From Nanobdellota archaeon (GTDB taxonomy: Archaea > Nanobdellota > Nanobdellia > Woesearchaeales > JACJVW01), in contig JBNJGT010000001.1 of the NCBI GenBank assembly GCA_051819765.1, positions 42,716 to 106,715 on the forward strand: DNA of 64,000 bases, given 5' to 3'. Both the position numbers and the translations under genes were made by a program. The notes under the pieces are model-generated. The model ran no database searches. It saw only the letters and a program-made list of their open reading frames with translations, and was not told the origin of the DNA. Positions within the stretch are counted from its first letter, which is position 1. Each line of letters begins with the position of its first letter. Below, in pieces: positions 4,932 through 59,990 of this stretch.

Positions 4932-5230
4932 TTTCATTCTAATTTTTCTTTCTTAAGATCGTAGGAGTCGATTGGCGCGTAGGTCATAGAGATGAGTGAT
5001 GCCACAAACATCAGTGTGAATACGATCATGAATGCGAACCCCCATGAAGGATAGCTTGCAAATACGTTGAATGATATAATAAGCCCGATAATACTTGTTA
5101 TCATGAAGGAACCGTTTAGTGGGGCAATTCCCATCTGCATCACCTCTTTTTTTGTTATATGTGGCCCATGTTTAAAAACTTTTTGAGTGAGAACTTTTAT
5201 AAATGAGGACCTTTTCCTCATCATAGTCGC

Positions 5231-5353
5231 GGGGGTGCCGGAGTGGCCAAACGGGATGGACTCAAGGGTATTGAGTGAAGAGCTCCCTGGAGCTATGACT
5301 GAGCAATCCATTGGCTTAGTGCCTACGAGGGTTCAAATCCCTTCCCCCGCATT
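5231..5353 (+). tRNA. tRNA-Leu(CAA) with a canonical-position intron of about 38 nt
   Basis: Acceptor GCGGGGG/CCCCCGC with discriminator A. D-arm CCG-GAGTGGCCAAA-CGG. Anticodon stem ATGGA/TCCAT with loop CTCAAG(G) interrupted by an insert after position 37. Long variable arm TGGCTTAGTGCC. T-arm GAGGG-TTCAAAT-CCCTT. CCA is not encoded. Confidence 0.8.
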
Positions 5354-17498: not shown

Positions 17499-18701
17499 AT
17501 GAAAGGGCAGATTGCTGTTTTTTTGATTCTTGGTCTGATAATTATCGCCTCTTTCATACTCGTTTATGCCTTAAATAAAACAAGCATGTTAGAGGAAAAC
17601 GTGCATGCCATCCGGACCACCCCTGAGATGAATGTTATGCAGATACGTGCAAATATCTCCAGCTGTCTCCAGCAGCAATTCGATACTGTCCTTGAAACCG
17701 CTCTGCATCAAGGTGGTGTCTATTATACAGATGTGGATTCAAAGGAGTATGCTGTGCAGTCACAAGGGGATCATGTGGTCCCATTCTTCTATCAGTATGG
17801 GAGGCGGGATATCCCTACCACACAGCAGATCATCAATAATCTCTCTGCTGCTCTTGTGATTGAGAGCAGGCACTGTTCTAATGTCTCTGATGTTGCTGTA
17901 TTTCCTTCAGTCGGTGAGCGTGTGAGTGCACGAATCAATTTCCCGGTTCAGGTCTCAACAGAAAATAAGATTGTCACTCTCGAGGATTTTCATGTGCAGT
18001 CGCATCTTAACGTATCCAACTTCATCAATATCAGCCACCAAGTGGACCAATTCCAAAAAAGAGGATTTTGCGTCAGTTGTCTCAATGAGCTCCCAGAGGT
18101 GAGTTACAGGGAATGGGTCTATGAGGACCGGGTGGATCGGCTTTATAGCGTCAATGATACGTTCTATTTTGCGCATCGTATCAATCGCTCCCTTGGTGTT
18201 GCCCAGAGTGCGGTGTTGTTGGAAGATGTCCCTGATCAGTATGCAACCGCCAATTATCCTTTTGTGTATAATCTGACATTAAGCGGTCGGGGGGTTGAGA
18301 TGCGGGACAATACAGACTTGTTTGAAGTCGAAGAAGGTAAGATCAATTTTACTCCCGGTCTCGAGGATGTGGGGAGACACCTTATCGCCATCACTGCGGA
18401 GAACTCTCAAGGTTCCAAGACTGTATTTTTCAATCTTACAGTCGATACTCTGGTATGCGTGCCAACTATCCACTATATCGGAGGACATAGTGTTGGTGTG
18501 GGTGAGCCATTCATCTATAATGTCACGGCAACATGTGATGAACCTGTCTTCTTTTTTGATGATACTGAGTTATTCAATATCTCAGATGATGGAATGATCA
18601 ATTTCACACCAGAGGTCAAAGGGGAGTATGTGTTTAACATATCTGTCTTAAGTAATAGCGGTGGTACTGATAGCCAGGATATGCAGTTGAGGGTAGAATG
18701 A
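17499..18701 (+). CDS. Type-II membrane-anchored extracellular protein with cadherin-like/Ig-like repeats and many N-glycosylation sequons
   Basis: Start MKGQIAVFLILGLIIIASFILVYAL (signal anchor). Two C-terminal repeats: DLFEVEEGKINFTPGLEDVGRHLIAITAENSQG and ELFNISDDGMINFTPEVKGEYVFNISVLSNSGG. Stop overlaps the next gene. Confidence 0.5.
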   Translation: MKGQIAVFLILGLIIIASFILVYALNKTSMLEENVHAIRTTPEMNVMQIRANISSCLQQQFDTVLETALHQGGVYYTDVDSKEYAVQSQGDHVVPFFYQYGRRDIPTTQQIINNLSAALVIESRHCSNVSDVAVFPSVGERVSARINFPVQVSTENKIVTLEDFHVQSHLNVSNFINISHQVDQFQKRGFCVSCLNELPEVSYREWVYEDRVDRLYSVNDTFYFAHRINRSLGVAQSAVLLEDVPDQYATANYPFVYNLTLSGRGVEMRDNTDLFEVEEGKINFTPGLEDVGRHLIAITAENSQGSKTVFFNLTVDTLVCVPTIHYIGGHSVGVGEPFIYNVTATCDEPVFFFDDTELFNISDDGMINFTPEVKGEYVFNISVLSNSGGTDSQDMQLRVE

Positions 18702-20992
18702 GAGGCTTCATATTATTGTTAGGCATTTTAAGTGTGATCTTCAGTATCGGGATTGCTGAGGAGCAAGGGTTTGATACAGATGACCCTGCTACATATGCGC
18801 AAAATCCTGAAGAGGTCATTGAAAATTTTGATACGATTGTTGATTCGAAGCCTGATATGCTTATCCAAAAGATGGATGAGAATCCTGGACTGCGCAGCAG
18901 GATTCTTGAGGATAAAGAGACCCGTGATACTCTTTTCTTGAAGGACAATTCGCTTCTCAATAGGGACGGGTATAGGACCGCTGCAAAAGACATGTTCAAT
19001 GATAAGTTTACCGGGTGCACCTTTACTGAAATTGATGGAGATATCGAATCCTTCTCTGAGGATCCTTTGGAGATAACGACTGCTAAAGGCTCATTGGCTT
19101 TGGGAGACCTTCAGGGTGGGGACTATGATGTCAGTATCGAGGAAGATGGTAGGATTAACCTCAATGGCCGTTCCTTTGAGGGTCAGATAACCGGTAATGG
19201 TGATACTCTTGCGGTCGATGGGAGCTATATGGTGGATGGGGAGTCATATAGCATTGCCGGGGACATCCGTGATGTTGGGGAGGGTCGCCTAGAAGGGACC
19301 TTCACGGAATTCAATGGGATTTCGGGTGAAGATCTGGATCTTACTTATCAGGATGGGATTGTTACACTTGGTGGTGGGAGAGTGGATTCTATCGATGAAC
19401 CTGTACGCATCGCAGGGCGCTTTACGTGCGCCAAGGAAGATATCGGGAGTTTTATGTCTGACGGGGCACAGATCACGGTCCTGGACAATGGAGATTTCGA
19501 TCGGCGGTATACTCTGCCAAAGGATACCACTGTCAATCTTCTCATGGATACTCCGGTGGACGAGGACTATCCTGAAGATGCCATCTCTTTATATGCTGAC
19601 GGCTATGCGGCAGATTACGAGAGTGGCGGGGCAACGGGTGACCTTTATGATATGGATCTTCCTCCACGGGGATATCTTGATGTAGGTGATTCCGGGGTGG
19701 AACAGTTGCAGCGGCAGATAAATGCTGAGTTGCGAGATCAACCGGGGTTTGAACCGATCAGCGTTGATGGGATATATGGCCCTGAGACCAAAAATGCTGT
19801 AAGAGAACTACAAAGGAAATATGGGTTGACTCAAGACGGATTATTCGGTTCCAATACTAAGGATGCTCTTATGCAAACCACGAATATGTTTGAAGTGCAA
19901 CGCTATGACCCTAATCTTGGTTCTCGTGGATTTCTATCACCTGGTAATAGAGGTGTTGAGGATGTTCAGCGGATTCTTAATGAGGAATTAATGATGCATG
20001 AGGATTTCGAGCCACTGCAGGTGGATGGAGTCTATGGTCCGAAGACTGAGGCCGCTGTCAAGATGTTGCAGAGGCAGTATGGTCTCACTGTGGATGGCAA
20101 ATTCGGAAGCCAAACTACGCAGGTACTTTCTGAGGCTTATCAGTTGACCGGTGAGGGGGGGTTTCGGGTGGTAGAGACTGAGTCTACCATGGAGTATTCT
20201 GAGGGAGCGTATCAGAATGGGGATCCTCTGCAAACCACTACCTACTTTAAGGGGGATTTTAATTACGGACGCTTTATCGCAGGTAATGATGGTGGGTATC
20301 AACCCATAATATATACGCAAGATGGCAAGGTCATGAATGAACCTGGGTACAGTTATGTATTAGATGATTTTGAGTATTTTGATGGCAATACTTACCAGGA
20401 ACTGGGTGATGTTGTTTCCCGCACTGACGGTTCAGAGGTCAATGGTCCCCCTCATGTCCAGAGTGGGGTTGATACTGAAGGCACTTCTGGCCTTACAACC
20501 AGAACAGTAGGATTGAATCCCCAGGAGATGGATCCTGAGATGAAGCAGTATGTGATGGAGAAGGCGCAGGGTGCAGGATTGGATCCAAAACGATTATTGC
20601 AGCAGATGAAACTTGAATCTCAGTTCGATCCATATGCTTTAAGTCCTGATAATTGCGTGGGTTATGGGCAGATCTCTGAAATTGCAGTTGATGATATAAA
20701 TGCTAACTATGGAACGTCATATGGGTATGATGATAGATGGCACCCCAAAAAAAATGTGGATATGGCTGTGGCTTACCTAGGCCTTCTGGATAGACGTGTA
20801 CGAAACAAGTACCCTAATGGAAAAACAACTCCTGATGGGAGGCATTATACACCTTTGGAAATTCGTGATCTGTATTATGTTGCAGGATCAGGGAACACTG
20901 ATAAATTTTTGAATGGCGAAAAATCAGGTGTCGGTGATGTCTCTGAAAGCTATTCTGAGAATGTTGAAAGGCAGCCGGTGTCTCTTCCCTAA
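18698..20992 (+). CDS. Secreted peptidoglycan-binding protein with a C-terminal lytic transglycosylase (SLT/lysozyme-like) domain
   Basis: Signal peptide MRGFILLLGILSVIFSIGIA. Two PG_binding_1-type repeats: ...VDGIYGPETKNAVRELQRKYGLTQDGLFGSNTKDAL and ...VDGVYGPKTEAAVKMLQRQYGLTVDGKFGSQTTQVL. SLT core MKLESQFDPYALSPDNCVGYGQISE...NVDMAVAYLGLL. Confidence 0.75.
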   Translation: MRGFILLLGILSVIFSIGIAEEQGFDTDDPATYAQNPEEVIENFDTIVDSKPDMLIQKMDENPGLRSRILEDKETRDTLFLKDNSLLNRDGYRTAAKDMFNDKFTGCTFTEIDGDIESFSEDPLEITTAKGSLALGDLQGGDYDVSIEEDGRINLNGRSFEGQITGNGDTLAVDGSYMVDGESYSIAGDIRDVGEGRLEGTFTEFNGISGEDLDLTYQDGIVTLGGGRVDSIDEPVRIAGRFTCAKEDIGSFMSDGAQITVLDNGDFDRRYTLPKDTTVNLLMDTPVDEDYPEDAISLYADGYAADYESGGATGDLYDMDLPPRGYLDVGDSGVEQLQRQINAELRDQPGFEPISVDGIYGPETKNAVRELQRKYGLTQDGLFGSNTKDALMQTTNMFEVQRYDPNLGSRGFLSPGNRGVEDVQRILNEELMMHEDFEPLQVDGVYGPKTEAAVKMLQRQYGLTVDGKFGSQTTQVLSEAYQLTGEGGFRVVETESTMEYSEGAYQNGDPLQTTTYFKGDFNYGRFIAGNDGGYQPIIYTQDGKVMNEPGYSYVLDDFEYFDGNTYQELGDVVSRTDGSEVNGPPHVQSGVDTEGTSGLTTRTVGLNPQEMDPEMKQYVMEKAQGAGLDPKRLLQQMKLESQFDPYALSPDNCVGYGQISEIAVDDINANYGTSYGYDDRWHPKKNVDMAVAYLGLLDRRVRNKYPNGKTTPDGRHYTPLEIRDLYYVAGSGNTDKFLNGEKSGVGDVSESYSENVERQPVSLP

Positions 20993-21773: not shown

Positions 21774-22822
21774 ATCGTGTTGGAATCGAAGACCCGAAGA
21801 ATCGGTCAGGGACCTATCTATATGAGGATGATTCTGCGAGGCTTTCCGAATCACGGGATGACAATATCGAGATCATGGATATCCGTGAGGCCCTCAAGAA
21901 GTATGACTGGCTCGCCAATTACATGTGGAAAGCCCTTGACCCTGAAAAGGATGAATACACAAAGATGGCGCGTAACCACTACCGTGGTGGGTATTTCATC
22001 TGGGTTAAGAAGGGGGCCCATATCTCCCTTCCTATCCAATCCTGTATGTTCATAAAGGAAGATCATTTCACCCAGGTAGTCCATAACATCGTGATCGTGG
22101 ATGAGGGTGCATCAGTTGATATCATGACAGGATGCCTAACTCATCCGAATGTGCATACGGCTGAGCATGTGGGTATGTCTGAATTCTATGTGAAGAAGAA
22201 CGGGCGCCTGAATTTCACGATGATCCATGACTGGAATGACAAGTCATTTGTCAGGCCACGAAGCGCGACCATCGTCGAGGAGGGAGGCTCATTCATCAAT
22301 AATTATGTGCTTCTTGAGCCAGTGAAGGATATTCAGGCTGCGCCAATCACGTATCTGAAAGGTGCTAACAGCAGGGCAACTCTCACGAGCCTGTTGCAGG
22401 GGGTTGGAACATCCAGTATCGATATGGGTGGGACTGTTGTGCTCCAGGGAAAGGGTTCACAGGGTGATATCATCTCCCGGGCGATCGCAAAAGATTCTTC
22501 AACTATCTATGCCCGGGGCATCATCCAGGGTGAACATGAGGAATCACGGGCGCATCTGGAATGCAATGGTCTGTTGCTTTCGCCGCACGCGAAGATCCAT
22601 GCCATCCCTGAGCTTGTTGCTACGACAGAGGGTGCGGATCTGTCCCATGAAGCAGCAGTCGGGAAGATCGCTGAGGAGGAGATAATCTATCTCATGTCCC
22701 GGGGAATGACAAAGGAAGAGGCTGAGGCCATGATCATCCGTGGCTTTCTGGATGTCAATATGCTGTCCCTGCCTGATGCCTTCAGGGAACGAGTCAAGGA
22801 TCTCATCAATCAGCTTAACTGA
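21761..22822 (+). CDS. Fe-S cluster assembly protein of the SufB/SufD family
   Basis: 353 aa immediately overlapping sufC. C-terminal beta-helix region (..GANSRATLTSLLQG..IISRAIAKDSSTIYARGIIQGEHEESRAHLECNGLLLS..). Confidence 0.7.
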   Translation: MEELNRVGIEDPKNRSGTYLYEDDSARLSESRDDNIEIMDIREALKKYDWLANYMWKALDPEKDEYTKMARNHYRGGYFIWVKKGAHISLPIQSCMFIKEDHFTQVVHNIVIVDEGASVDIMTGCLTHPNVHTAEHVGMSEFYVKKNGRLNFTMIHDWNDKSFVRPRSATIVEEGGSFINNYVLLEPVKDIQAAPITYLKGANSRATLTSLLQGVGTSSIDMGGTVVLQGKGSQGDIISRAIAKDSSTIYARGIIQGEHEESRAHLECNGLLLSPHAKIHAIPELVATTEGADLSHEAAVGKIAEEEIIYLMSRGMTKEEAEAMIIRGFLDVNMLSLPDAFRERVKDLINQLN

Positions 22823-25800
22823 ATTCTCTCCGGTTGTAATAGTTTGCAGCAATCACGATACCGATGAGAATCAGGATAAGGGTCGCAAGGATTATGCCAA
22901 TGATTGTAAGCGGTACCTTGTTCCTGTTCAGGTACCCTCTCCATTCGCTCATCTCCTGGGGCTGCTCTATCTGCTGCTCTTTACCGCTGATAAGATACCG
23001 ACAGGTGTCGATGGTCTTTTGCAAGAGTTCCTTTGACTGCTCGGTCTTGCCCTGTTCAATCAGGTCTCGTGCACGGGCTATCTGCTCGTTGAGTTCCAGG
23101 CATTCAGGGTTTGAGGTAAGCAGGTCACGGACAAACTTCACTTCATTCTCCAGACTCTCCCCTTCAAGAGGCGTGATTGATACAAATGCATAGTCCATGA
23201 GTTCAGGGTTCAGGGAATGGGCACTGATATTGATATTGACTGCCTCTGCGTTTTGCCAGGATGCTTCTACCTGGGTCTCCAGGGTTTCCTGGGGGCTGAG
23301 TGTTGCAATGACCTTGTCCTGAAAATTGAATGTGACGTCTTCATTGCTCTGGGCATCAAGGGTGATCTGGTTGAGGGTGATATTCCCTTGGTTCTTCAGT
23401 GTAAGGGGAATTATTACTGAATCGTTATCTGTCTGTATAAGGGGTTGCGGGGTGATGAGCTGGAGGAACTCTGGCTGTGTGACGTTTTCTGTCTCAGGGA
23501 ACGGGACAATGACCCGTCTTATGTCTCCACCTCCTCCTCCTGAGCTTTCGGGAGGTGGCTGGTCATAGGTGTCGAGGACTGTTATGGTTATGTTGTTTGA
23601 TTGGATGCTTGCGTTTTTTGGATCTTGTGCCTCTACCCTGAAACGCGCGATGCCGTACCAGTCTGTTGCCGGAGAAAGGCTGAGCTGGTTTTGCTGGTTG
23701 ATTGATATGCCTAGATTGTCGCTGTTTTGTATGTCTATTATGGAGAAATTGAGGGTGTCTTTGTCCTTGTCTGAGAAATAGTGGTCAAGGTCAATCCAGG
23801 GAGAGATGTCGTATTCCTCTTTCATTATGAAATCCGGGATTCGCATATTGAGGAGAGGTTCGTTGACTGTCGCATTGCTTATGGTGAGTGCGTACTGGAT
23901 GTAACGGTTTTCCCAATGGTACGTCATATTCTGGGTGCGGTTTTCGTCATGGAACAGGCTTTGGTTTGATAGTGGGTCGGACCATGATGACCAGGCATTC
24001 GCGTTGTATGATGTGCGTGCCTGGAGTGTTGCAGCGCTGACCTTGTGGAGCCTTAGTTCGTTCACTTGTATCTGACCTGTGAAATCCAGTTTCATTCGAT
24101 CCATAGGGGTTGGAGGGATGGTAAGGGTCTGGTTGCCGTTGCAGTCTGATGAAAGGAGATGATTGGAAGTGCCATTGAAGGTGTATGTGATGTTGATGGT
24201 TGTAGGTTGTCTTGTTGAGAGTGAAATGTTCCGGATGAAGGTTGGGGTATTGAATGCGATCGAGAGGGTTGCGGGTGAGTCAGCCTCCCAGTAGGTAAGG
24301 TAATTGTCATCATATGTTCTTGAGATGTTGTGGAATGAACTTGTTGTATGTGATGCGGTGCGTTCTCCTATGATCTCAGAGGTGTGGTTCCCTCTGACAC
24401 GGTACTTGATGTTTCGAAAATCCGGCTTTAAAAGATGGGTTGTGTCGTCCAGGGTGTCCTTTGGCTCTGAGATGAATCTTCCTTGCCCCCTGAATGAGTC
24501 GGTATAGGAGGTATTGTAGAAGGTACCATCAATGCCGAGGGGGACCTCTCCGAAAGAGGGTGGGCGGTTTACATCAATGACGGTGATATTCCATAGTACG
24601 TGGTTTGCTGTGACATTGTCAGATACGGTCAGATTGAGGGTGTGTGTGCCTGAGCTGGAATGATTAAAGTATATGGTGAGGTTCTTTGTTGTATGGGAAT
24701 GGTTATCATATATCCAGGTGGTGAGGATGGTGTCATTCTCATTGTCTGAGCTGTTGTGCATGAAGGTTATTGTCGTGTCCTCGGCGGTTGTAAGATTTAT
24801 CCGGGTCTTGTTTGTCCAATTCCCATGATAGACCTCATGGATGATTGGGGGGGTGTTGTTTTCTACCTCTATTGTTATCAGGTTTGAGCTTGTTGTCGCA
24901 ATGGAGTCGTTTGCGACGAATGCGACGGACAGGTTTCCCACGAAGTCGGTTGCAGGAGCGGCTGTGACACGTGATCCATTGAACCAGAGGGTCATGTCTG
25001 TGGTTGGGCTGTGGGTGAAGTTCATTGACTGGTTGCATGCGTCAATCTGGTAGAAATAATCTGTGAGGTCAAGTATCTCTTTGACCTGGTTCTTTTTTAT
25101 TGTGATATTGGGTATGGGCCTGTCAAGTATTGGTGGTATATTATTATTCTGGACTGTGAGGTTCCATGTGAGGCCTGTGGAGAGATTGCCGTCGGAAACG
25201 TTGACGCTTATGTTATACTGGCCTGCTGCGCAGAAATCGGGAGTGAATGACCAGTTCTGCGTTGTTGCTATAGGTTGGTTGTTGATTGTCCAATTGTAGA
25301 AAAGCAGGTCACTATCTGGGTCATGGATCGTAATGTTGAAGTCCTGTGTGGTGTTCTCCTGAATCGTGTGGTTCAGGGGAGGGATGAAGCTTGTTATCTC
25401 AGGCGGCTTACTTACGTTTATTATATGGTACAATGCTTGCTTGTAGGTGGTGTTGATGCCATCGGTCACGCTAAAGTTGAGGGTCAGGTTTCCCGGCTGT
25501 TTGGGTGTGAAGTTGAATGTTCCTATGGTGGTGGCGCCGATCGGCTCTGTTTGTATGGATGAGGAAATGTTGAAAAGCAAAGGTGATACATTGAGTGCGA
25601 GAAGATCTGCGTCCTCGTCATAGGCTTTGATTGTTATCTCATAGGTATGGTCTTCTCGTAATGAATTGCCGCCGGTCTTGTTCTCCAGCAGTGTAAAATA
25701 CGGGATATCGTTCGTGTCGGTGATGTTTATCACAAGCGTTGATGAGTTGATGCCTCCGTAGGGGTCTGAGACGGTGATGTTGAATGGGTGTACACCTACC

Positions 25801-27797
25801 TCTGATTGGTTGGCTGTGAGGTTTATCATGAGGGTGTTGTTTTGTATCCATGAGGATAGGTTGTGAAAGGAAAGGTTGGTTGAGTAGTTGAGTGTGTCAT
25901 CATCTGGGTCGGTTGCCTGTATTGTGAAGTTGCAGGGGTAATCCTCGCGGCAGGTGACTGATTTGTTGCTTATTTGTGGGTTGTGGTTGCTTGTGATATT
26001 GAATATTGCGATTGTTGAATCATTGAATTCACCATCAGAGACGGTGAGGTTAACCTGTACAAGGCTGACATTGTCAGGGGTGAACTGGACGAGCCCCGTG
26101 GACTGGATGTCGAAGAGGGAGGTGTTGTCCCAGTACATGTGGGTGTCATCGATGTCACGGTCTTCTACATATGAGGAAAGGTCACGGCTGAAGCTCGTGT
26201 TCACCCGTGGGTTGAATGTGGGCAAGGGTTGCCATTGGGGGCGGTTATTGATGTCTATTACTTCAAGGTGGAAGGCCTGGTTGTCTCGTGCTCCTTTTGA
26301 ATCTTCGACAGTCACCTGTACTGTATGATTGCCTGTATGGTTGTCCATCAGTTGCACTTCCAAGCGGGCACTGGCGTTTTCTTTATCATCTATCGGTATG
26401 ACATTGATCCATGAGATGTTTGTTGAGAAGGTGAGGTTGTCTTCAGGGTCAAGGTCTGTTGCGTTGACTATGAGCTGGAACAGGTTGCCTTCAGTATCTG
26501 TCTGGTTGTCTATTGGTGAGAGTACAGGGATATTATTCTTTTTGACTTCTATAGACACATTTGTGCAGGTAGTATTGATTGAATCGCTTGCGCAAATGTT
26601 TACAGTGTGGTTCTTTACTTGTGAGGGAGTCGTATTGATGATGCCGTCGGTCGTATTGAATACACTGCTGTTTGAGGTGAATGTATGAGAGTCATGGGGG
26701 TCATTGTCTGTGAGGTAGTCATTGAGATTTAATGTGAAATAGGCGCCTTGCGCTGTTGTCTGGTTGGGAATGGGAAGGAAAACCGGCGGGTTGTTGACGT
26801 TATTTACAGTTATGGTTATGTTGTTTGAATCAGTGGTGGTGTAACTGTCATTTGCCCTGAACCGTATGGTGACATTACCGAACCAGTAATCCTCAGGATT
26901 GATTGAGACTGTGTGGTTTCCCTCTATCGCTATGGTGACATTCACTTCAGGTATTGCGTTGATTACTGAGTAGGTAAGATTATCCTTGTTTGCCCCTGAG
27001 CAGGTAGTATCCGGGTCATTAAAGTAATCCTCCAATACCAAAAAGTCTTCGAGCTGTTCTCCTTCATTAAGAGTGATGTTTGCGATTGGACCATTGAACT
27101 CGGGCTGGCGGTTGCTATTGTTCACTGTTATATCCCAGGTGTAGGTGTCTGACTCGTTTTGGTCGGTTATGTCCACTTCTACTGTGTGGGTTCCTGCGGT
27201 GCAGTGGCCAAAGCCTATGCTGTATAGTCCAGAGGTTGAATTTGTCTTGTTTACGAGAATGTTATTGTGGTACCAGGTAGTCTCAAGGCTGTCCCCCCAG
27301 GGGATGTCAGGGTCTGATAGGGAATAGTTGTATCTGAATTCCTGGGTTGTACCCTCTGTGATGCTGATTGGGGAAAGGGGAGTTACGCCTTTCAGGGCCG
27401 GCGGGTCGTTTACGTTTTGGATCCTAAAGTAGAGCCGTACGGTCTCATACTCTGATGAGGGTCCTGAATCTTCGGCAATAATGTAAATTGTGTAATTTTG
27501 TGGTCCACTTTCGGTTCCGACATCCTCGTTTGTAGGTGTGAAATTCATGATGGCGCTGGTATCATTGTAGCTTTCCAGTTGGAAGGATGGGAATAGTTCG
27601 CTTGCCAGTGCCCCGGCTTCAGTTGTTTTGAAAGTGATAGGGTAATCCTCATCAGGGTCGATCGCCTTGATAAAATAGGGCGGCGTGGGTTGATCTTCAG
27701 TCAGGATGAACCAGTCGTCATCTGCTACGTTCGTGAATTGAGGGGTTGCCCCATAGGCCAATGTTACCAGTAGCAGTATCAGTAGCAGTCGTTTCAT
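22815..27797 (-). CDS. Giant (1660 aa) surface adhesin-like glycoprotein: signal peptide, many cadherin/Ig-like repeats, C-terminal TM anchor
   Basis: N-terminal MKRLLLILLLVTLAYG. Dozens of NxS/T sequons. Repeated '...FTP..V......NLTVSDG' units. C-terminal IIGIILATLILILIGIVIAANYY followed by a short tail. Confidence 0.7.
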   Translation of the reverse strand: MKRLLLILLLVTLAYGATPQFTNVADDDWFILTEDQPTPPYFIKAIDPDEDYPITFKTTEAGALASELFPSFQLESYNDTSAIMNFTPTNEDVGTESGPQNYTIYIIAEDSGPSSEYETVRLYFRIQNVNDPPALKGVTPLSPISITEGTTQEFRYNYSLSDPDIPWGDSLETTWYHNNILVNKTNSTSGLYSIGFGHCTAGTHTVEVDITDQNESDTYTWDITVNNSNRQPEFNGPIANITLNEGEQLEDFLVLEDYFNDPDTTCSGANKDNLTYSVINAIPEVNVTIAIEGNHTVSINPEDYWFGNVTIRFRANDSYTTTDSNNITITVNNVNNPPVFLPIPNQTTAQGAYFTLNLNDYLTDNDPHDSHTFTSNSSVFNTTDGIINTTPSQVKNHTVNICASDSINTTCTNVSIEVKKNNIPVLSPIDNQTDTEGNLFQLIVNATDLDPEDNLTFSTNISWINVIPIDDKENASARLEVQLMDNHTGNHTVQVTVEDSKGARDNQAFHLEVIDINNRPQWQPLPTFNPRVNTSFSRDLSSYVEDRDIDDTHMYWDNTSLFDIQSTGLVQFTPDNVSLVQVNLTVSDGEFNDSTIAIFNITSNHNPQISNKSVTCREDYPCNFTIQATDPDDDTLNYSTNLSFHNLSSWIQNNTLMINLTANQSEVGVHPFNITVSDPYGGINSSTLVINITDTNDIPYFTLLENKTGGNSLREDHTYEITIKAYDEDADLLALNVSPLLFNISSSIQTEPIGATTIGTFNFTPKQPGNLTLNFSVTDGINTTYKQALYHIINVSKPPEITSFIPPLNHTIQENTTQDFNITIHDPDSDLLFYNWTINNQPIATTQNWSFTPDFCAAGQYNISVNVSDGNLSTGLTWNLTVQNNNIPPILDRPIPNITIKKNQVKEILDLTDYFYQIDACNQSMNFTHSPTTDMTLWFNGSRVTAAPATDFVGNLSVAFVANDSIATTSSNLITIEVENNTPPIIHEVYHGNWTNKTRINLTTAEDTTITFMHNSSDNENDTILTTWIYDNHSHTTKNLTIYFNHSSSGTHTLNLTVSDNVTANHVLWNITVIDVNRPPSFGEVPLGIDGTFYNTSYTDSFRGQGRFISEPKDTLDDTTHLLKPDFRNIKYRVRGNHTSEIIGERTASHTTSSFHNISRTYDDNYLTYWEADSPATLSIAFNTPTFIRNISLSTRQPTTINITYTFNGTSNHLLSSDCNGNQTLTIPPTPMDRMKLDFTGQIQVNELRLHKVSAATLQARTSYNANAWSSWSDPLSNQSLFHDENRTQNMTYHWENRYIQYALTISNATVNEPLLNMRIPDFIMKEEYDISPWIDLDHYFSDKDKDTLNFSIIDIQNSDNLGISINQQNQLSLSPATDWYGIARFRVEAQDPKNASIQSNNITITVLDTYDQPPPESSGGGGGDIRRVIVPFPETENVTQPEFLQLITPQPLIQTDNDSVIIPLTLKNQGNITLNQITLDAQSNEDVTFNFQDKVIATLSPQETLETQVEASWQNAEAVNINISAHSLNPELMDYAFVSITPLEGESLENEVKFVRDLLTSNPECLELNEQIARARDLIEQGKTEQSKELLQKTIDTCRYLISGKEQQIEQPQEMSEWRGYLNRNKVPLTIIGIILATLILILIGIVIAANYYNRREFS

Positions 27798-41188: not shown

Positions 41189-41262
41189 GGCGGCCGTGGT
41201 GTAGCCTGGCAGCACAAAGGACTGTGGATCCTTTAGGGCGAGTTCAAATCTCGCCGGTCGCC
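41189..41262 (+). tRNA. tRNA-His(GUG) with a genomically encoded G-1
   Basis: G-1 pairs with discriminator C73. Acceptor GCGGCCG/CGGTCGC. D-arm GTGT-AGCCTGGCA-GCAC. Anticodon stem AAGGA/TCCTT with loop CTGTGGA. T-arm GCGAG-TTCAAAT-CTCGC. Confidence 0.85.
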
Positions 41263-41264
41263 CT

Positions 41265-54468: not shown

Positions 54469-54744
54469 ATGCTAAAGATGAAAAATATTACTGATACCTT
54501 TGATATGAAGGTTTTTACTGATAGTGGTGAGTACTTCGGTGACATTGAGGAATCAATACTCACCCAGACCAAAGTCTTTGGATGGCGGGTCAAGGCGACC
54601 AAGAATTCCTATCTTTCCAAGGTACTTGGGAATGCGAAGGGAGTTATCGTTCCCCACCAGCTTGTAAAAGCCATCGGCGATATCATGCTCATAAGCAAGG
54701 CTGCGGTTCCGTCGTATAACCCGGAATCGAATGATTACGAATAA
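54469..54744 (+). CDS. PRC-barrel domain protein
   Basis: 91 aa of beta-rich sequence (...VFTDSGEYFGDIEESILTQTKVFGWRVKA...KGVIVPHQLVKAIGDIMLI). Overlaps the queH start by 14 nt. Confidence 0.45.
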   Translation: MLKMKNITDTFDMKVFTDSGEYFGDIEESILTQTKVFGWRVKATKNSYLSKVLGNAKGVIVPHQLVKAIGDIMLISKAAVPSYNPESNDYE

Positions 54745-55252
54745 GCTATTGCATGTGTGTTGTGCTTCCTGTGCGCTCGTTGCGTTGGAGCGTTGGGATG
54801 GCCTTTCTCTTTTCTTCTATAATCCTTCTATACCTCCTGGGGAGTATGATGCGCGTTTTTCTGATGTGAAACTGGTTGCCCTGCGGTATGGGGTGGAGCT
54901 TGTGCCCGCGCCGTATGATCACCAGGCGTGGCTTGATCGCGTTTTTGGGCTGGAGGGTGAGCCTGAGAATGGCAGGCGCTGCCTTTTGTGTTACCGGGAC
55001 CGGCTGGAGAAGACCTATGAGATGGCGGTGAATAAGTTTGATGCCTTTGCGACGACATTGACTCTAAGCCCCCACAAGAACGCAGAAATCATCAACCGCA
55101 TCGGGAAGGAGGTCGGTGGTGACCTGTACCTTGAGAGTAACTTCAAAAAGCAGGCCGGGTATGATCTCAGTGTACGTCTGAGCAAAGAGATGGGCTTGTA
55201 CCGTCAGAGTTTTTGCGGCTGCGAGATGAGCATGCAGTCTCCCAGTGAATAG
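54731..55252 (+). CDS. queH: Epoxyqueuosine reductase QueH (DUF208)
   Basis: LLHVCCASCA near the N-terminus, FFYNPSIPPGEY, a conserved Cys pattern (..GRRCLLCY.., FCGCE) and about 170-aa length. Confidence 0.7.
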   Translation: MITNKLLHVCCASCALVALERWDGLSLFFYNPSIPPGEYDARFSDVKLVALRYGVELVPAPYDHQAWLDRVFGLEGEPENGRRCLLCYRDRLEKTYEMAVNKFDAFATTLTLSPHKNAEIINRIGKEVGGDLYLESNFKKQAGYDLSVRLSKEMGLYRQSFCGCEMSMQSPSE

Positions 55253-56181
55253 AATCTGTACTTCTTTTGGATGGCATGGTGGTAGGCTTCAAATACTTTC
55301 TCTTTTCCTATGAATGCGCTGATGAGGAGTAGCAGGGTTGATTTTGGAAGGTGGAAGTTGGTGAGGAAGCCCTGGGGATGTACCCTGAACTGGTAGCCTG
55401 GCTTGATGAAGAGGTCTGAGTAGCCTTCATAGGGGTGGATAATCCCATTGCTGTCAGCAGCTGTCTCCAGGGATTTCATGGTGGTGGTCCCGACCACAAA
55501 CAGACGGCCCTTGCGGTTGTTGATCTGGTCAGCGGTCTCTTTGGTGATTGTTATGTATTCGGGTTCCATCTGATGGGTCGCAAGGTCATAGACCTTGTTG
55601 AAGGTGCCATAGCCAACGTGGAGGCAGACGGAGGCGAATTGGATGCCTTTCTGTCTGAGTTCTTGAATGAGGTTCCTTGTGAAATGGAGGCCTGCAGTGG
55701 GGGCGGCAAGGGAGCCGGGGTTGTTGGCATAGACAGTCTGGTATTCGGATTCGTCATGAAGCTCTCCTGTGATATAGGGTGGGGTGGGGAGCAATCCTTC
55801 GAGTGGTTCTTTCCGGAATTCGAGAAGGAAGGTGTCCTTTTCTTTCTTTCTGATGGTTGCCTTTGTATCCGTGAAGATAAGGGTGTTTCCGACCCGTGGT
55901 TTCCCTTTGATGCGGCAACGGTGTAGATTCCCTTCCTGTTGCATGAGCATGACTTCTACTGGGCTTCCAGTCTCTTTTTTGCCGAGAAGGCGCGCTCTTT
56001 TGACTTTGGTGTCGTTGATGACGATGAGGTCATCCTTTCTCAGATAGTCTTTTATCTGATAGAACCGTTTGTCTGTGAGCCTTTTAGAGAGTACCAACAT
56101 GCGTGAGTAGCTTTTGGGCTTTGCTGGTTCTTGGGCAATGAGTGCCGGGGGCAGGTGGTAGTCAAACTCCTCAAGCTTCAT
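55204..56181 (-). CDS. queA: S-adenosylmethionine:tRNA ribosyltransferase-isomerase QueA
   Basis: MKLEEFDYHLPPALIAQEPAKP..., RLFVVGTTTMKSLE, GYSDLFIKPGYQFRVHPQGFLTNFHLPKSTLLLLISAF, 325 aa. Confidence 0.85.
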   Translation of the reverse strand: MKLEEFDYHLPPALIAQEPAKPKSYSRMLVLSKRLTDKRFYQIKDYLRKDDLIVINDTKVKRARLLGKKETGSPVEVMLMQQEGNLHRCRIKGKPRVGNTLIFTDTKATIRKKEKDTFLLEFRKEPLEGLLPTPPYITGELHDESEYQTVYANNPGSLAAPTAGLHFTRNLIQELRQKGIQFASVCLHVGYGTFNKVYDLATHQMEPEYITITKETADQINNRKGRLFVVGTTTMKSLETAADSNGIIHPYEGYSDLFIKPGYQFRVHPQGFLTNFHLPKSTLLLLISAFIGKEKVFEAYHHAIQKKYRFYSLGDCMLISQPQKL

Positions 56182-56202
56182 GGGGATGAGAAATCAGGTG
56201 TT

Positions 56203-56210
56203 GTATATAA
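56203..56210 (-). promoter_or_regulatory. TATA-like element (minus strand tttatata) about 22 to 30 nt upstream of the queA start
   Basis: gtatataa on the + strand. Confidence 0.35.
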
Positions 56211-56214
56211 AGGA

Positions 56215-56297
56215 TTATGCGGTTACGCTAAGGTGATAATAATAGTTTTGGACACAGTCCTTTGGTTTTATTGAGCACCCTTTTGGTAACCGCATAA
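56215..56297. promoter_or_regulatory. Perfect 12-bp inverted repeat (TTATGCGGTTAC ... GTAACCGCATAA) with a ~59-nt spacer, upstream of queA
   Basis: Read directly at 56215..56226 and 56286..56297. Lies between the stop of 56308..56763 and the queA promoter. Confidence 0.45.
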
Positions 56298-56307
56298 CCC
56301 ATTCAGA

Positions 56308-56763
56308 TTAAAATTGATTTTTCTTTATAACTTTTTTTATTTCGGGGGAGGTTATTTGGCTCACTGAATCGAACATAGCTTTCAATCCGGTCTTAAGTGT
56401 CTTCTTATCAGCAATCTTATCGTGGACATAGGGTGAGATGATCCATTTCTGGTCCCTCACACTGTTAGGGTTGATAAAGTAGATGAAGAGGTGCTTGAAT
56501 TTGATGAGCTCTTTCCAGAGACTCTGGAGGCTTTTGAGGTTATCTTCAGTGTTGAAAACGATCACAGCGGTGTGCTGGTCTTCCTTGCTTACCTTAAGCA
56601 CTTCTTCCAAGGTCTCAAAACCATAGACATAAAGTGTCTTGTCCTTGTAGTTGATTTCCAGGTGGTGGGATTTTTCATCAATTGCGATGATTTTCTTGTA
56701 GATTATGTCCTTGTTGCGGAAATATTCCTTTGCCCAATGGAGAAGGTAATCCTGACTATTCAT
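56308..56763 (-). CDS. Hypothetical protein (151 aa)
   Basis: ORF with Lys-rich mixed alpha/beta composition. No motif recognised. Confidence 0.4.
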   Translation of the reverse strand: MNSQDYLLHWAKEYFRNKDIIYKKIIAIDEKSHHLEINYKDKTLYVYGFETLEEVLKVSKEDQHTAVIVFNTEDNLKSLQSLWKELIKFKHLFIYFINPNSVRDQKWIISPYVHDKIADKKTLKTGLKAMFDSVSQITSPEIKKVIKKNQF

Positions 56764-56809: not shown

Positions 56810-58312
56810 TTATTCTGTGAAACCTTGTACCATGAACTGGCAGAGCTTTGGCAGGAGTTCCTTTCGGGGGATGCGCACCTGCTTTGTGCTGTCACGGTCA
56901 CGCAGGGTGATGTCATCGTTTTCCACGCTCTCGAAATCGATGGTGATGCAGAACGGTGTTCCGATCTCATCCTGGCGGGCGTAGCGCTTGCCGATGGAGC
57001 CAGATTTATCATATGTGCAGTTGAATTCCCGCTTCAATTCGTCAAAGATGTCCCGGGCCATCCTGGTGAGCGGTTCCTTATTCATGAGCGGAAATACTGC
57101 GCATTTGATCGGTGCAAGCTCAGGTTTTAGTTTGAGGACGATGTTGCCTCGTTCCTTATCATCATTGAATGCGTCAACGAGTGTTGCAAGAAAGACCCGG
57201 TCCATCCCAAAGGTTGGTTCAATGACCCGGGGCACCACTTTCTGTTTGCTGTCCTCGTCGAAAAGGTCCAGTTTCTGCTTACTCTCGTTCATGTGCTGGG
57301 TGAGGTCATACTGGCCACGGTTGGCATTACCGGCCACTTCCTTTGATCCGAACGGGAAACTGTAATCCATGTCGAAGGTTGCTGAAGAGTAATGGGAGAG
57401 CTCGTCCGTCGTGTGTTCGCGCACCTTGAAATTGTTCAGGTCAAGCCCCATGCTTTTGAACCAGTTGATCTGTTCAGCGAGCCAGTAGGCATGCCATTCG
57501 CCAAGGCGCTTTTCCTTGAGAAGCTGCCGTATGGTGGTCTGGGTGAGTTGGTTCTCGTTTTTCTCCTGGCTTTCGGCACTGAGGAAATTGAATTGTGTGT
57601 CCAGGGCCTTATCTGTCAGATTCTCACATTCCTCGACCTCTGGGTGTAGGAAGAACTCGAACTCTCCGATGGTGAATTCTCTGCATCGGAATATGAAATC
57701 CCGGGGAGATATCTCATTCCGGAAGCATTTCCCGATCTGGCCGATGCCGAAGGGTAATTTCATGCGCTGGGACTCGGCGATGAGCTTGAAGTCGGTGAAC
57801 ATCCCTTGTGCGGTCTCTCCTCTGAGATATGCCTCTGAGGCCTTGTCCTCGTCAGCACCGACGTGGGTCTTGAAGAGGAGGTTGAAGTTTTTGAGTTCGC
57901 CGAACTGGCCGCCACAGTCAGGACAGGCAAGGTTGTTTTCCTGGATGATCTGGTTTATCTTTTCAATCTCCATACCTTCCACATTCATGTCCAGCTTGTC
58001 CTCGATGAGGTGGTCAGCCCTATATTTCTTCTTGCATTTGGTGCAGGCGATAAGCAGGTCTCCGAAGGAATCCAAGTGGCCAGAGGCCTTCCAGACTCGA
58101 GGATGGGATATTATGCTTGCGTCAAGGCCTACCATGTTCTCCTGGGAATGGATAAAGGTCTTCCACCAGTGTTGCTTGATATTGTTGAAGAGTTCTACTC
58201 CAAGGGGGCCGTAGTCCCAGAATCCGGCGATGCCGCCATAAATCTCGGAGCTTTGGAAGATAAACCCTTTCTGCTTGCAGAATGTTGATATTTTCTCGAT
58301 TGTCAGGTCCAT
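56810..58312 (-). CDS. glyS: Glycyl-tRNA synthetase (archaeal/eukaryotic alpha2 type)
   Basis: MDLTIEKISTFCKQKGFIFQSSEIYGGIAGFWDYGPLG, class II motifs ...FRNEISPRDF... and ...GQYDL.., and the C-terminal anticodon-binding domain. 500 aa. Confidence 0.95.
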   Translation of the reverse strand: MDLTIEKISTFCKQKGFIFQSSEIYGGIAGFWDYGPLGVELFNNIKQHWWKTFIHSQENMVGLDASIISHPRVWKASGHLDSFGDLLIACTKCKKKYRADHLIEDKLDMNVEGMEIEKINQIIQENNLACPDCGGQFGELKNFNLLFKTHVGADEDKASEAYLRGETAQGMFTDFKLIAESQRMKLPFGIGQIGKCFRNEISPRDFIFRCREFTIGEFEFFLHPEVEECENLTDKALDTQFNFLSAESQEKNENQLTQTTIRQLLKEKRLGEWHAYWLAEQINWFKSMGLDLNNFKVREHTTDELSHYSSATFDMDYSFPFGSKEVAGNANRGQYDLTQHMNESKQKLDLFDEDSKQKVVPRVIEPTFGMDRVFLATLVDAFNDDKERGNIVLKLKPELAPIKCAVFPLMNKEPLTRMARDIFDELKREFNCTYDKSGSIGKRYARQDEIGTPFCITIDFESVENDDITLRDRDSTKQVRIPRKELLPKLCQFMVQGFTE

Positions 58313-58385
58313 TGTGTATCCCTTTTATGTGGTAGTCTTGTACATATATAAATTCTTTGGAGAAGTCGCGTGTCTCCTTGGAGTG

Positions 58386-59990
58386 ATGACTCGCATAAGA
58401 TTTATAAGAACACTGTCGCTCCTTTCGGTCATGGAGCCGTATCGGGTCTTTGTTCATCTTGCAGGGTACAACAAGAAATCCCATGCTCAGGCAGACCAGT
58501 CAGGATTGTTGGGGTTGCTCGATTCAGTCCGGCTGGAGCGGACCAAAGTGTACCTGAAAAGGTGGCTGGTCAAACAGAGTTATGGTGAGAACCTGATAGA
58601 TGAGGAGAACAAGGCACTCAAGCCGATCGATGATTCTGGAAAGCGTGCGATCCACCCTGGCCTTGAGGCAGTGGCAGGTCTTGGTAATAGTCATAGCGTC
58701 ATTGTCGGTGACAGGAGTTCATTGGAATCAGTGATTGATGATGAGGTCATCGAACAAGGTGACCATTTCCTTGAAAACCTGGATTTGGGCTATCAACGTG
58801 CGGTTGCCCGTCGGGAAGAACTCCTCTCCCAAGGAGCTCAGGTATCGGATCATATCTATTTCCTGTTTGGGGATGTGTTTGCTGCAACAACAGATGCTAT
58901 CAAACACTTTGCTGATAGGGTTGAAGAACATGATGCAGATTTGAGTGTGGGCATCTGCCTGCGACAGGAGAACGGGGTGGATGATGGGCGTCGGTATTTC
59001 AATATCCGGCCATGGGTCAAGTTTGCTGACGCAGAATTTCGAAACTCAAACATCGGGGCTCTGAGAGTGCCGACTGAGACACGTGGGATTCCGCGTGAGC
59101 GGTATTTCTTGTTTTCAGCAGGCTATACCCTTCGGAAGCTCAAGAATCCTCTTAATCTGGCATTGCTTGGAAAAAACATGGTCACACCCAACTCCCAGAA
59201 TGTGGGTGACTATCCTATTGATGGGAAAAGTCTCTACATAGCTTCTTCTGGTCTCCTGAAAACCTATGCGCAGGATTTCCTGGGTAAGTTCAATCCTTCG
59301 TGGAAGCCAACTCTTGCGGGCGTTGAAGCGATCCTGAATCGTAGTTTCGAAACAGAGGACAAAGCCCCTACTATCTCTTTTCTCCCGGCTGATTGTTGCC
59401 TGGAGCCGGACATCGATTCGCGGAAGGATGAGGAGCGGGCCCGGAAGCTGGTTGCTGTCTCTCGACTTCAGGATGTGACCTATGAGGATTGCCTGTCCAT
59501 GTATGGGCAATGCGAGGATGTTGGTTGTAAATTTGTGCGGTTGGTGGGGACTGATATGAACCGCCGGGTCTTTGGGATGCGTACCAATAGCTCACGGGGC
59601 AAGAAGGATTATCGTCTGCCGCTCTCTAAAGTGCAGCGGGAACTGGATACAATCGCTCAGGAGCCGACCAAATCGCTGTATTTTCATCCTCATATGCCTC
59701 CGGAGACCAATTATTTGGCTGACTTGTATCATGATATGCAGCGGGCATATGCCATCAGGGTCTCGGACAATCAGTCAATCATCATGAGTGTGCTTCGGGA
59801 AACGACGCAAAAGCTTGGCACTACAGATTTTTCCTCTTTATCTGTCCAACCTCTTACCGGTGCAGAAAGACGTGTGCTTTACCGCTCAGTCGCAAAGATC
59901 AACCAGGTTGAAGGGCTTTCTTTTGGGGGGGCAAAGTATGATTCTGCCCGGGCAGATGCCATAGTGCGGCGCTATTTGGAAAACATTTAA
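58386..59990 (+). CDS. Large hypothetical protein (about 535 aa); start placed after the divergent glyS start
   Basis: The track ORF begins at 58275 but would overlap the glyS 5' end. ATG 58386 (MTRIRFIRTL) follows GGAG. No motif recognised (..FHPHMPPETNY..). Confidence 0.45.
   Translation: MTRIRFIRTLSLLSVMEPYRVFVHLAGYNKKSHAQADQSGLLGLLDSVRLERTKVYLKRWLVKQSYGENLIDEENKALKPIDDSGKRAIHPGLEAVAGLGNSHSVIVGDRSSLESVIDDEVIEQGDHFLENLDLGYQRAVARREELLSQGAQVSDHIYFLFGDVFAATTDAIKHFADRVEEHDADLSVGICLRQENGVDDGRRYFNIRPWVKFADAEFRNSNIGALRVPTETRGIPRERYFLFSAGYTLRKLKNPLNLALLGKNMVTPNSQNVGDYPIDGKSLYIASSGLLKTYAQDFLGKFNPSWKPTLAGVEAILNRSFETEDKAPTISFLPADCCLEPDIDSRKDEERARKLVAVSRLQDVTYEDCLSMYGQCEDVGCKFVRLVGTDMNRRVFGMRTNSSRGKKDYRLPLSKVQRELDTIAQEPTKSLYFHPHMPPETNYLADLYHDMQRAYAIRVSDNQSIIMSVLRETTQKLGTTDFSSLSVQPLTGAERRVLYRSVAKINQVEGLSFGGAKYDSARADAIVRRYLENI

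Follow-up and report, generated by a model that had tools for sequence, protein, structure and literature searches.

We analysed a 64,000-nt stretch of DNA from a Nanobdellota archaeon (contig JBNJGT010000001.1; hereafter the window, to which all positions refer) in which the queuosine (Q) genes queA and queH stand beside orf151, an unannotated gene of a protein family that we call orf15x, with a 12-bp inverted repeat in the spacer between queA and orf151. We found that the arms of this repeat form the terminal helix of a structured RNA of ~95 nt that is conserved in relatives, lies on the queA-sense strand and belongs to no Rfam family. In its genomic position, this small RNA accompanies orf15x genes and not queA. 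For the locus as a whole, the best explanation is probably that intact bacterial Q enzymes sit between conserved DPANN genes and that the orf15x-linked small RNA is transcribed on its own. What is new here is an RNA family supported by covariation and without a match in Rfam, together with the uncharacterised protein family associated with it. The loci of relatives are designated L001–L113.

The repeat had been singled out in the initial annotation of this DNA as a candidate regulator site or structured RNA upstream of queA. Its arms, TTATGCGGTTAC (56215–56226) and GTAACCGCATAA (56286–56297), match perfectly over 12 bp across a 59-nt spacer. Alone, such a repeat is weakly improbable, as we estimate that ~0.6 perfect 12-bp repeats within 150 nt are expected by chance in 64 kb; the window contains no other. 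The repeat is the inner 12 bp of a 15-bp terminal helix, P1, in which 56286–56300 pair with 56212–56226. Enclosed by P1, the RNA of the window forms a helix P2 (AGGGUG/CACCUU), an AU-rich helix P2b and a GGAC-UGU-GUCC hairpin (P3), and the whole element folds at −35.8 kcal/mol with z=−6.1 (RNAfold). Conservation of the repeat in relatives, a point on which the earlier proposal hinged, was clear: the element is kept in eleven independent instances, each of which folds on its own into the same long hairpin. From the outside in, this hairpin consists of a P1 of 9–15 bp whose sequence is different in every lineage, a small internal loop, a P2 in which (A)GGGKG pairs with CMCCU(U), the AU-rich P2b and a P3 made of a 4–5 bp GC hairpin with a loop of 3–5 nt.

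MAFFT and RNAalifold run on the raw elements recover the small hairpin only and misalign the outer stems. We therefore rely on a structural alignment made by hand, with the register forced by N padding, which was then re-derived with a covariance model on real sequences. In the hand alignment of nine sequences, the 19 pairs of P1, P2 and P3 are Watson-Crick in 148 cases, G·U in 15, A·C in 1 and of another kind in 7. Pairing thus holds on one strand only (15 G·U vs 1 A·C), which points to RNA, not DNA. When ten real sequences are aligned by the covariance model, 95.1% of the cells are paired vs 68.8% after shuffling, both sides of the pair change in 14 of the 19 pairs, and none of 500 shuffles reaches any of the observed measures; slid controls pair at 32–50%. 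This alignment was fitted to the covariance model, so its covariation figures are somewhat inflated, a bias from which the independent minimum-free-energy folds are free. Fold (z=−6.1) and covariation, the checks proposed in the initial annotation, agree on a structured RNA.

The closest relative, L081, gives the same picture at short range. Its orf151-queA spacer is 86% identical to that of the window, vs 72–74% for the flanking coding DNA, and two substitutions in the arms convert an A-U pair to G·U and a G·U pair to A-U on the queA-sense strand only. A covariance model built from eight sequences recovered the held-out L093 (E=4e-5), found new instances in L108 (E=1.7e-6) and L112 (E=1.9e-5) and detected one copy in the window. 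There is also a weak match in L098 (3267–3338, +; 17.7 bits, E=0.04–0.2), ~600 nt downstream of an orf15x gene, which may be a diverged copy.

Could the repeat act as DNA, either as a palindromic site for a regulator or as the remnant of a miniature inverted-repeat transposable element (MITE)? The perfect 12-bp arms, and a 3′ arm that abuts the TFB-recognition-element/TATA region of queA, would be in keeping with such a role. The arm sequences are, however, wholly different between lineages and still complementary, their pairing is confined to one strand as described above, the element occurs once in 64 kb, and a 59-nt spacing is unsuited to a dimeric regulator. Since the covariation is strand-asymmetric, a function at the DNA level is refuted, and we give it almost no weight. 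A MITE was rejected because the element is single-copy, and the repeats of a replication origin (origin recognition boxes) because the pairing is strand-asymmetric.

The RNA resembles no catalogued family. Rfam 15 returned no match for the element at gathering or at permissive thresholds (E up to 10 for the window and up to 1 for five other instances), apart from sub-threshold snoRNA matches on the opposite strand only (E ≥ 0.97), and we found no description of the small RNA in the literature searched. Pattern scans with the DNA of the RNA core gave 0 hits in Joint Genome Institute (JGI) metagenome contigs and 0 hits in viral contigs. On inspection of the 11 instances, a C/D-box or H/ACA guide RNA was rejected because conserved boxes and a GA/AG K-turn are missing and the 3′ end is not at a constant distance from the stem. 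5S rRNA and signal recognition particle (SRP)/4.5S RNA were rejected as well, there being no three-way junction and no GNRA loop. As a separate observation, 12 identical bases, CAAAGGACTGTG, are shared by the apical hairpin region of the RNA (56253–56264, −) and the anticodon arm of tRNA-His(GUG) (41215–41226, +). Mimicry of this anticodon arm as a substrate of tRNA-guanine transglycosylase (TGT) was rejected because elsewhere the central base of the loop can be G, A or C, depending on the lineage, and ~0.6 chance matches are expected; the identity is probably a coincidence.

The open reading frame (ORF) list and Pfam scans place the small RNA in a compact block made of a PRC-barrel gene, queH, queA, a 126-nt spacer, orf151 and a glycyl-tRNA synthetase (GlyRS) gene. 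The coordinates and motifs given in the initial annotation are all correct. The features are as follows.

54469–54744, + strand: PRC-barrel gene, a 91-aa ORF (the NCBI call has 88 aa and starts from M4).
54731–55252, + strand: queH, a DUF208-type epoxyqueuosine reductase of 173 aa (PF02677).
55204–56181, − strand: queA, a tRNA preQ1(34) S-adenosylmethionine ribosyltransferase-isomerase of 325 aa (PF02547).
56204–56211, − strand: TATA-like box TTTATATA of queA, read from the sequence, a putative promoter element.
56208–56305, − strand: structured small RNA of ~95 nt, from fold and covariation.
56323–56330, − strand: TATA-like box TTATAAAG, the putative promoter of the small RNA.
56308–56763, − strand: orf151, member of the orf15x family, a 151-aa ORF without annotation.
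56810–58312, − strand: glycyl-tRNA synthetase, from the ORF list and Pfam.
41190–41263: tRNA-His(GUG), a tRNA gene in the window.

Where does the small RNA occur? In L083 the spacer upstream of queA is 50 nt long and has no hairpin; there, the element lies just after the orf151 homologue, and a PHP gene on the other strand separates it from queA. Homologues of orf151 are likewise followed by the element in L089, L090, L091, L093, L094, L102 and L108, and in L112/L113 it stands free between two opposite-strand genes, 2 kb from the orf151 homologue. Five of these loci (L083, L090, L091, L102 and L112) have no co-oriented que gene after the element. In addition, 1.36 Mb of queA loci from bacteria, Methanoperedens, Thermoplasmata and other Woesearchaeota contain no copy of the small RNA that the covariance model scores at E<0.2.

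This distribution bears directly on the idea, raised in the initial annotation, that the hairpin is a riboswitch-like cis leader of queA. In the window, L081, L089 and L108, a co-oriented queA does follow the hairpin directly, and in the window no strong T-tract separates the two. Against a leader role, (i) no Rfam riboswitch matches, preQ1 classes I–III included; (ii) in the five loci just listed, the element is followed by an opposite-strand gene or by one other than a que gene; (iii) the RNA is missing from the queA loci searched; and (iv) a TATA box of queA lies between the hairpin and the ATG. This box, TTTATATA, is 22 nt upstream of the ATG, and L081 (TTTATAAA) and L108 (TATTTAAA) have a box in the same arrangement. 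The hairpin is thus upstream of the putative queA promoter, and from the 22-nt distance queA mRNA is probably leaderless and made from its own promoter. A leader or riboswitch function for queA is already largely refuted, and we regard it as very unlikely. Of the two roles first proposed for the repeat, the structured RNA therefore stands, and the regulator of queA, of the preQ1 riboswitch type or otherwise, does not.

Transcription signals point to a separate gene. A TATA-like box, TTATAAA(G/A/T) or TTTATATA, is found 21–25 nt upstream of the outermost helix in 8 of the 11 instances (the window, L081, L083, L089, L091, L102, L108 and L112). In the window this box, TTATAAAG, falls within the 3′-terminal coding sequence of orf151, 22 nt before P1 begins. 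Since the spacing equals the distance from an archaeal promoter to its start site, the small RNA is probably an independent transcript, with a predicted length of ~95–105 nt and its two ends paired. After the element, uridine tracts are present in L089 (T7) and L094 (T6); in the window the tract is weak.

The hairpin might instead be the 3′ untranslated region, terminator or stabiliser of the orf15x (GlyRS-orf151) transcript and not a gene of its own. In 9 of the 11 instances it starts at most ~40 nt from the orf15x stop codon or overlaps it, on the same strand, and the U-rich tracts that follow it in L089 and L094 would suit a terminator. The TATA box nevertheless lies at a fixed 21–25 nt from the base of the helix, wherever the stop codon of orf15x falls, and in L112/L113 the element is alone, 2 kb from orf15x and between opposite-strand genes, with a TATA box of its own. 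A simple terminator, moreover, would not keep its internal-loop sequences across lineages whose proteins are 35–45% identical. We consider this origin of the hairpin improbable, if deserving of some weight, and prefer an independent small RNA. As a best guess, this RNA would work alongside the orf15x protein or control it.

The protein partner of the RNA is as poorly described as the RNA itself. We found no Pfam, NCBIfam or PADLOC family for orf151 and no match to sequence profiles of the PDB. A word-indexed homologue search returned 3 proteins only; a full HMMER profile search (E<1e-3) revealed at least 639 representatives of clusters at 50% identity, 126–203 aa long and mostly 130–160 aa. 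Named members are hypothetical proteins of Woesearchaeota or of archaeon GW2011_AR4. The AlphaFold model of orf151 is confident, with a predicted local distance difference test (pLDDT) score of 96.9, and shows a remote resemblance to the PD-(D/E)xK fold only; no canonical PD-(D/E)xK motif is made up by the invariant residues of the family (D19, N71, W83, N98, P99, W107, H114 and G126).

Genes of the orf15x family recur beside Q genes. They adjoin queA in the window, L081, L089 and L108, with queA convergent in L001 and across a PHP gene in L083; queH, again across a PHP gene, in L091; and a divergent bacterial-type tgt in L109–L111. L112 has no Q gene near orf15x. In L092, L095 and L096, orf15x and a PRC-barrel gene are convergent neighbours, 2–3.5 kb apart, without queA or queH, and in L096 a 241-aa membrane protein is encoded between them. 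As orf15x and PRC-barrel genes are adjacent even without Q genes, the Q genes appear to sit in an older, conserved synteny slot.

Recurrent adjacency could mean that orf15x and the small RNA are functional parts of the machinery for queuosine or tRNA modification in DPANN archaea, perhaps as a ribonucleoprotein (RNP) that handles substrates or has a regulatory task. Consistent with this, orf15x adjoins queA, queH or bacterial-type tgt in at least 6 lineages with varied partners and orientations, and among the orf15x-anchored loci not picked for their Q genes, L091, L108 and L109 have an adjacent Q gene. The association is, however, incomplete on both sides: orf15x has no Q gene within 4–5 kb in L092, L095, L096 and L112, and queA lacks orf15x in L103, L105, L106 and the euryarchaeal loci. 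The fold offers no biochemical clue, and the pattern fits one ancestral island beside orf15x that was later dispersed. We therefore doubt a role in the Q system, and favour a single ancestral island of tgt, queA and queH next to orf15x, since dispersing, over a functional link. It is equally doubtful that orf15x, a DPANN-specific protein of ~150 aa, and the ~95-nt RNA encoded at its 3′ end form an undescribed RNP or regulatory module functionally tied to the acquired tgt, queA and queH. If they do, the module might, for instance, adapt a bacterial tRNA-modification pathway to archaeal tRNAs or control that pathway.

The Q enzymes of the window are full-length, of bacterial type and apparently intact, with no sign of decay as judged from their sequences. 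QueA matches PF02547 (Queuosine_synth) with E=2e-105 and 353 bits (cut-off 25) and scores above the NCBIfam equivalog cut-offs (NF001140, 364.7 vs 324; TIGR00113, 327.5 vs 267.45). Its residues 1–319 align with QueA of Thermotoga maritima (PDB 1vky, E=6e-78), and its sequence is 100% that of a protein listed by NCBI as ‘QueA [Nanobdellota archaeon]’. Degeneracy of QueA, named beforehand as part of the outcome that would speak against a working pathway, was not seen: beyond the equivalog scores, 47 columns are invariant over 33 QueA sequences (that of the window and 32 relatives). QueH matches PF02677 with E=7.5e-47 and 160 bits (cut-off 23.5) and aligns with T. maritima QueH (PDB 7lc5, E=5.6e-26) with all six cysteines in register. 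The cysteines form an N-terminal CC, a central CxxC and a C-terminal CxC motif. In QueH, these conserved cysteines serve the Fe-S and iron sites.

Castelle et al. (2021, Front Microbiol, PMC8204110) have already reported bacterial QueA, QueH and TGT in DPANN archaea, and dozens of Woesearchaeota QueA proteins (45–57% identity) are in the databases under the name QueA. The queuosine genes described here are one more example of a published observation, not new. Hence, of the surprise expressed in the initial annotation at finding Q genes in an archaeon, the observation holds and the novelty does not, the DPANN pathway having been published in 2021 and QueA being annotated by NCBI; horizontal acquisition of queA and queH, also proposed there, is the accepted reading (PMC8204110).

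Other loci show which partners these enzymes can have. L109, a Woesearchaeota genome, encodes a 368-aa TGT that is 43% identical to Bacillus subtilis Tgt and has the Zn-site CxCxxC...H, and tgt directly follows queA in Methanoperedens, in a Thermoplasmata metagenome-assembled genome (MAG) and in a Methanobacteriota MAG. In L106, Vut_1, of the YhhQ/QPTR family of precursor transporters, is encoded upstream of queA. In L106/L107 (4007–6494), Vut_1, DUF5652, queA and a convergent queH make up a compact salvage-type Q cluster that has neither orf15x nor the small RNA. The most likely function of the genes in the window, as far as homology can tell, would be a salvage-fed sequence of TGT, QueA and QueH acting on GUN-anticodon tRNAs. 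Salvaged preQ1 or preQ0 would be inserted at G34 of these tRNAs by a bacterial-type TGT encoded elsewhere, QueA would add the epoxy-cyclopentanediol ring from S-adenosylmethionine, and QueH would reduce the epoxy form to queuosine. The tRNA-His(GUG) of the window is one candidate substrate with a GUN anticodon.

What is the relation of queH to the PRC-barrel gene? The stop of the PRC-barrel gene and the start of queH overlap by 14 nt, and the 47-nt spacer upstream of the PRC-barrel gene contains a TATA-like TTTAAATA as well as a GGAGG. Its product scores just under the Pfam cut-off for PF05239 (E=1.2e-3, 19.3 bits vs 21.2), and residues 6–76 match solved PRC-barrel proteins (PDB 8onw/8qzo, E=7e-12, ~1e-11). 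The search returned 3620 homologues; the best 120 of the 3620 are 77–100% identical, and among the homologues listed the named ones are mostly from Woesearchaeota and are called ‘PRC-barrel domain-containing’ or ‘YlmC’. Between the window and L081, identity is 99% for the PRC-barrel protein vs 74% for QueA and 70% for QueH; the corresponding values for L083 are 78%, 57% and 42%. By these comparisons, the PRC-barrel protein is a hyper-conserved core protein of DPANN archaea and is CdpB-like.

The overlap with queH is kept in L081, L083 and L089, and the PRC-barrel gene occurs without queH in L085–L088. Because of the latter loci, we read the coupling as genome compaction and not as a functional fusion. 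The initial annotation was right that queH is coupled to the PRC-barrel gene; a part for this gene in the Q pathway is not upheld, as it belongs to the DPANN core and is found in places where queH is missing. We conclude that queH was captured as an overlapping second cistron under the PRC-barrel gene's promoter, giving a PRC-queH bicistron, and that queA and queH occupy a slot between two older DPANN genes, the CdpB-like PRC-barrel gene and orf151. Single-domain PRC barrels of the CdpB1/2/3 type act in FtsZ/SepF cell division, and CdpB-type genes are present in DPANN archaea, often near translation genes, Cdc48 and InfB, according to two preprints of 2023 (bioRxiv 10.1101/2023.03.28.534520 and 10.1101/2023.03.28.534543). 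Binding of SepF or CdpB partners at the division ring is known for haloarchaeal and Archaeoglobus fulgidus proteins only.

The source of the window is a Woesearchaeota-type DPANN archaeon, classified by NCBI in Nanobdellota, a DPANN phylum formerly named Nanoarchaeota. The contig carries archaeal RNase P RNA, thermosome, aIF5A, RadA, RPA, PCNA, aIF5B, Trm1 and CDC48, as well as a large peptidoglycan (PG)-binding/SLT protein typical of Woesearchaeota. L081 is fully syntenic with the window, and the same gene block is present in four more DPANN lineages (L081/L082, L083/L084, L089 and L108). The archaeal markers, the overlap of queH with an archaeal core gene and the recurrence of the block in these four lineages argue against contamination; with the matches to Pfam, NCBIfam and PDB, they establish that queA and queH are real genes on an archaeal contig. 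Q genes with overlapping frames inside archaeal core operons also suggest that they have long been functionally integrated, and speak against an artefact of binning.

The convergent queA and queH overlap by 49 nt at their 3′ ends, and overlapping 3′ coding ends imply that the ends of the two mRNAs must be mutually antisense. The overlap measures 55 nt in L081, 37 in L083, 37 in L089, 18 in L106 and 30 in L108, and is kept across DPANN lineages whose QueA proteins are only ~50% identical. Elsewhere in the window, a tRNA-Val(CAC) with a 39-nt intron in the anticodon loop (5229–5351, +) was detected by Rfam and by the intron mode of ARAGORN and is missed by its default mode. A 571-aa ORF without a Pfam or NCBIfam match (58275–59990, +) occupies a ~1.7-kb stretch between GlyRS and the CDC48 region; this stretch is missing from the otherwise syntenic L081 and is thus a lineage-specific insertion. 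Two large surface-type proteins, one of 764 aa with PG-binding/SLT, lytic transglycosylase-like domains (18698–20992, +) and one of 1660 aa with Big_9, PKD and cadherin domains (22815–27797, −), are consistent with the episymbiont lifestyle proposed for small-genome Woesearchaeota.

Several points weigh against intact Q enzymes in a DPANN slot beside an independent, orf15x-linked RNA. A bacterial-type tgt (~370 aa, PF01702) was not found in the 64-kb window when ~50 ORFs were compared with Pfam and B. subtilis Tgt was used in tblastn; queC, queD, queE, queF, YhhQ and QueT were not found there either (same ORFs vs Pfam, tblastn with the Vut_1 (YhhQ) protein). The literature yielded no report of a chemical detection of queuosine in any DPANN archaeon. 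The RNA alignment comprises 10–11 lineages and was seeded by a structural alignment made by hand. In the window, no run of ≥5 T follows the hairpin, and read-through from the small-RNA promoter into queA may give the element a leader role in this lineage. Finally, the link between orf15x and the Q genes may be inherited synteny, not function.

Hardly any DPANN archaea have been cultured, and their non-coding RNAs have, to our knowledge, barely been explored. The small RNA is coupled to a protein family widespread in these archaea (at least 639 clusters at 50% identity), and the orf15x/RNA pair is found, in several lineages, beside each of three Q-pathway genes. The conserved RNA-protein pairing offers a concrete, testable handle on the biology of reduced DPANN genomes.

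How do these elements compare with known systems? Like the preQ1 riboswitches of classes I–III, the small RNA is structured and lies beside a que gene. It differs from them in that it has no Rfam match, is a much larger hairpin (~95 nt) with its own predicted promoter, precedes a que gene in some loci but not in others and occurs in an archaeal host. Y RNA with Ro, 4.5S/SRP RNA and 6S RNA are protein-associated hairpin RNAs whose ends are paired in a terminal stem. The likeness to these is one of architecture only: a long irregular hairpin closed by its ends, with conserved internal loops, beside a conserved protein gene. The sequence and loop signatures of these RNAs are not present here, and Rfam gives no match.

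Among proteins, the PRC-barrel protein shares with CdpB1/CdpB2 a single-domain PRC barrel of ~90 aa and a neighbourhood with translation genes, Cdc48 and aIF5B; its Pfam score is just below the cut-off, and ‘CdpB-like’ is used without implying orthology to a particular branch. An operonic overlap with a tRNA-modification gene is not among the CdpB neighbourhoods reported in the available text of the two preprints (10.1101/2023.03.28.534520, 10.1101/2023.03.28.534543). As in Castelle et al. (PMC8204110), bacterial-type QueA and QueH (DUF208) are found on DPANN contigs, are read as laterally acquired and have Woesearchaeota as their main carrier. In contrast to the co-localised tgt described there, none lies within the 64 kb of the window, and the text searched makes no mention of a PRC-barrel gene overlapping queH, of orf15x next door or of the small RNA. 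Compared with bacterial QueA (PF02547/TIGR00113; PDB 1vky, 1yy3) and QueH (PF02677; 7lc5), the proteins of the window match over their full length above curated cut-offs and keep the motifs and cysteines. What sets the genes apart is their archaeal host, their convergent arrangement with overlapping 3′ ends, the place of queH as second cistron behind an archaeal PRC-barrel gene and a queA that is probably leaderless.

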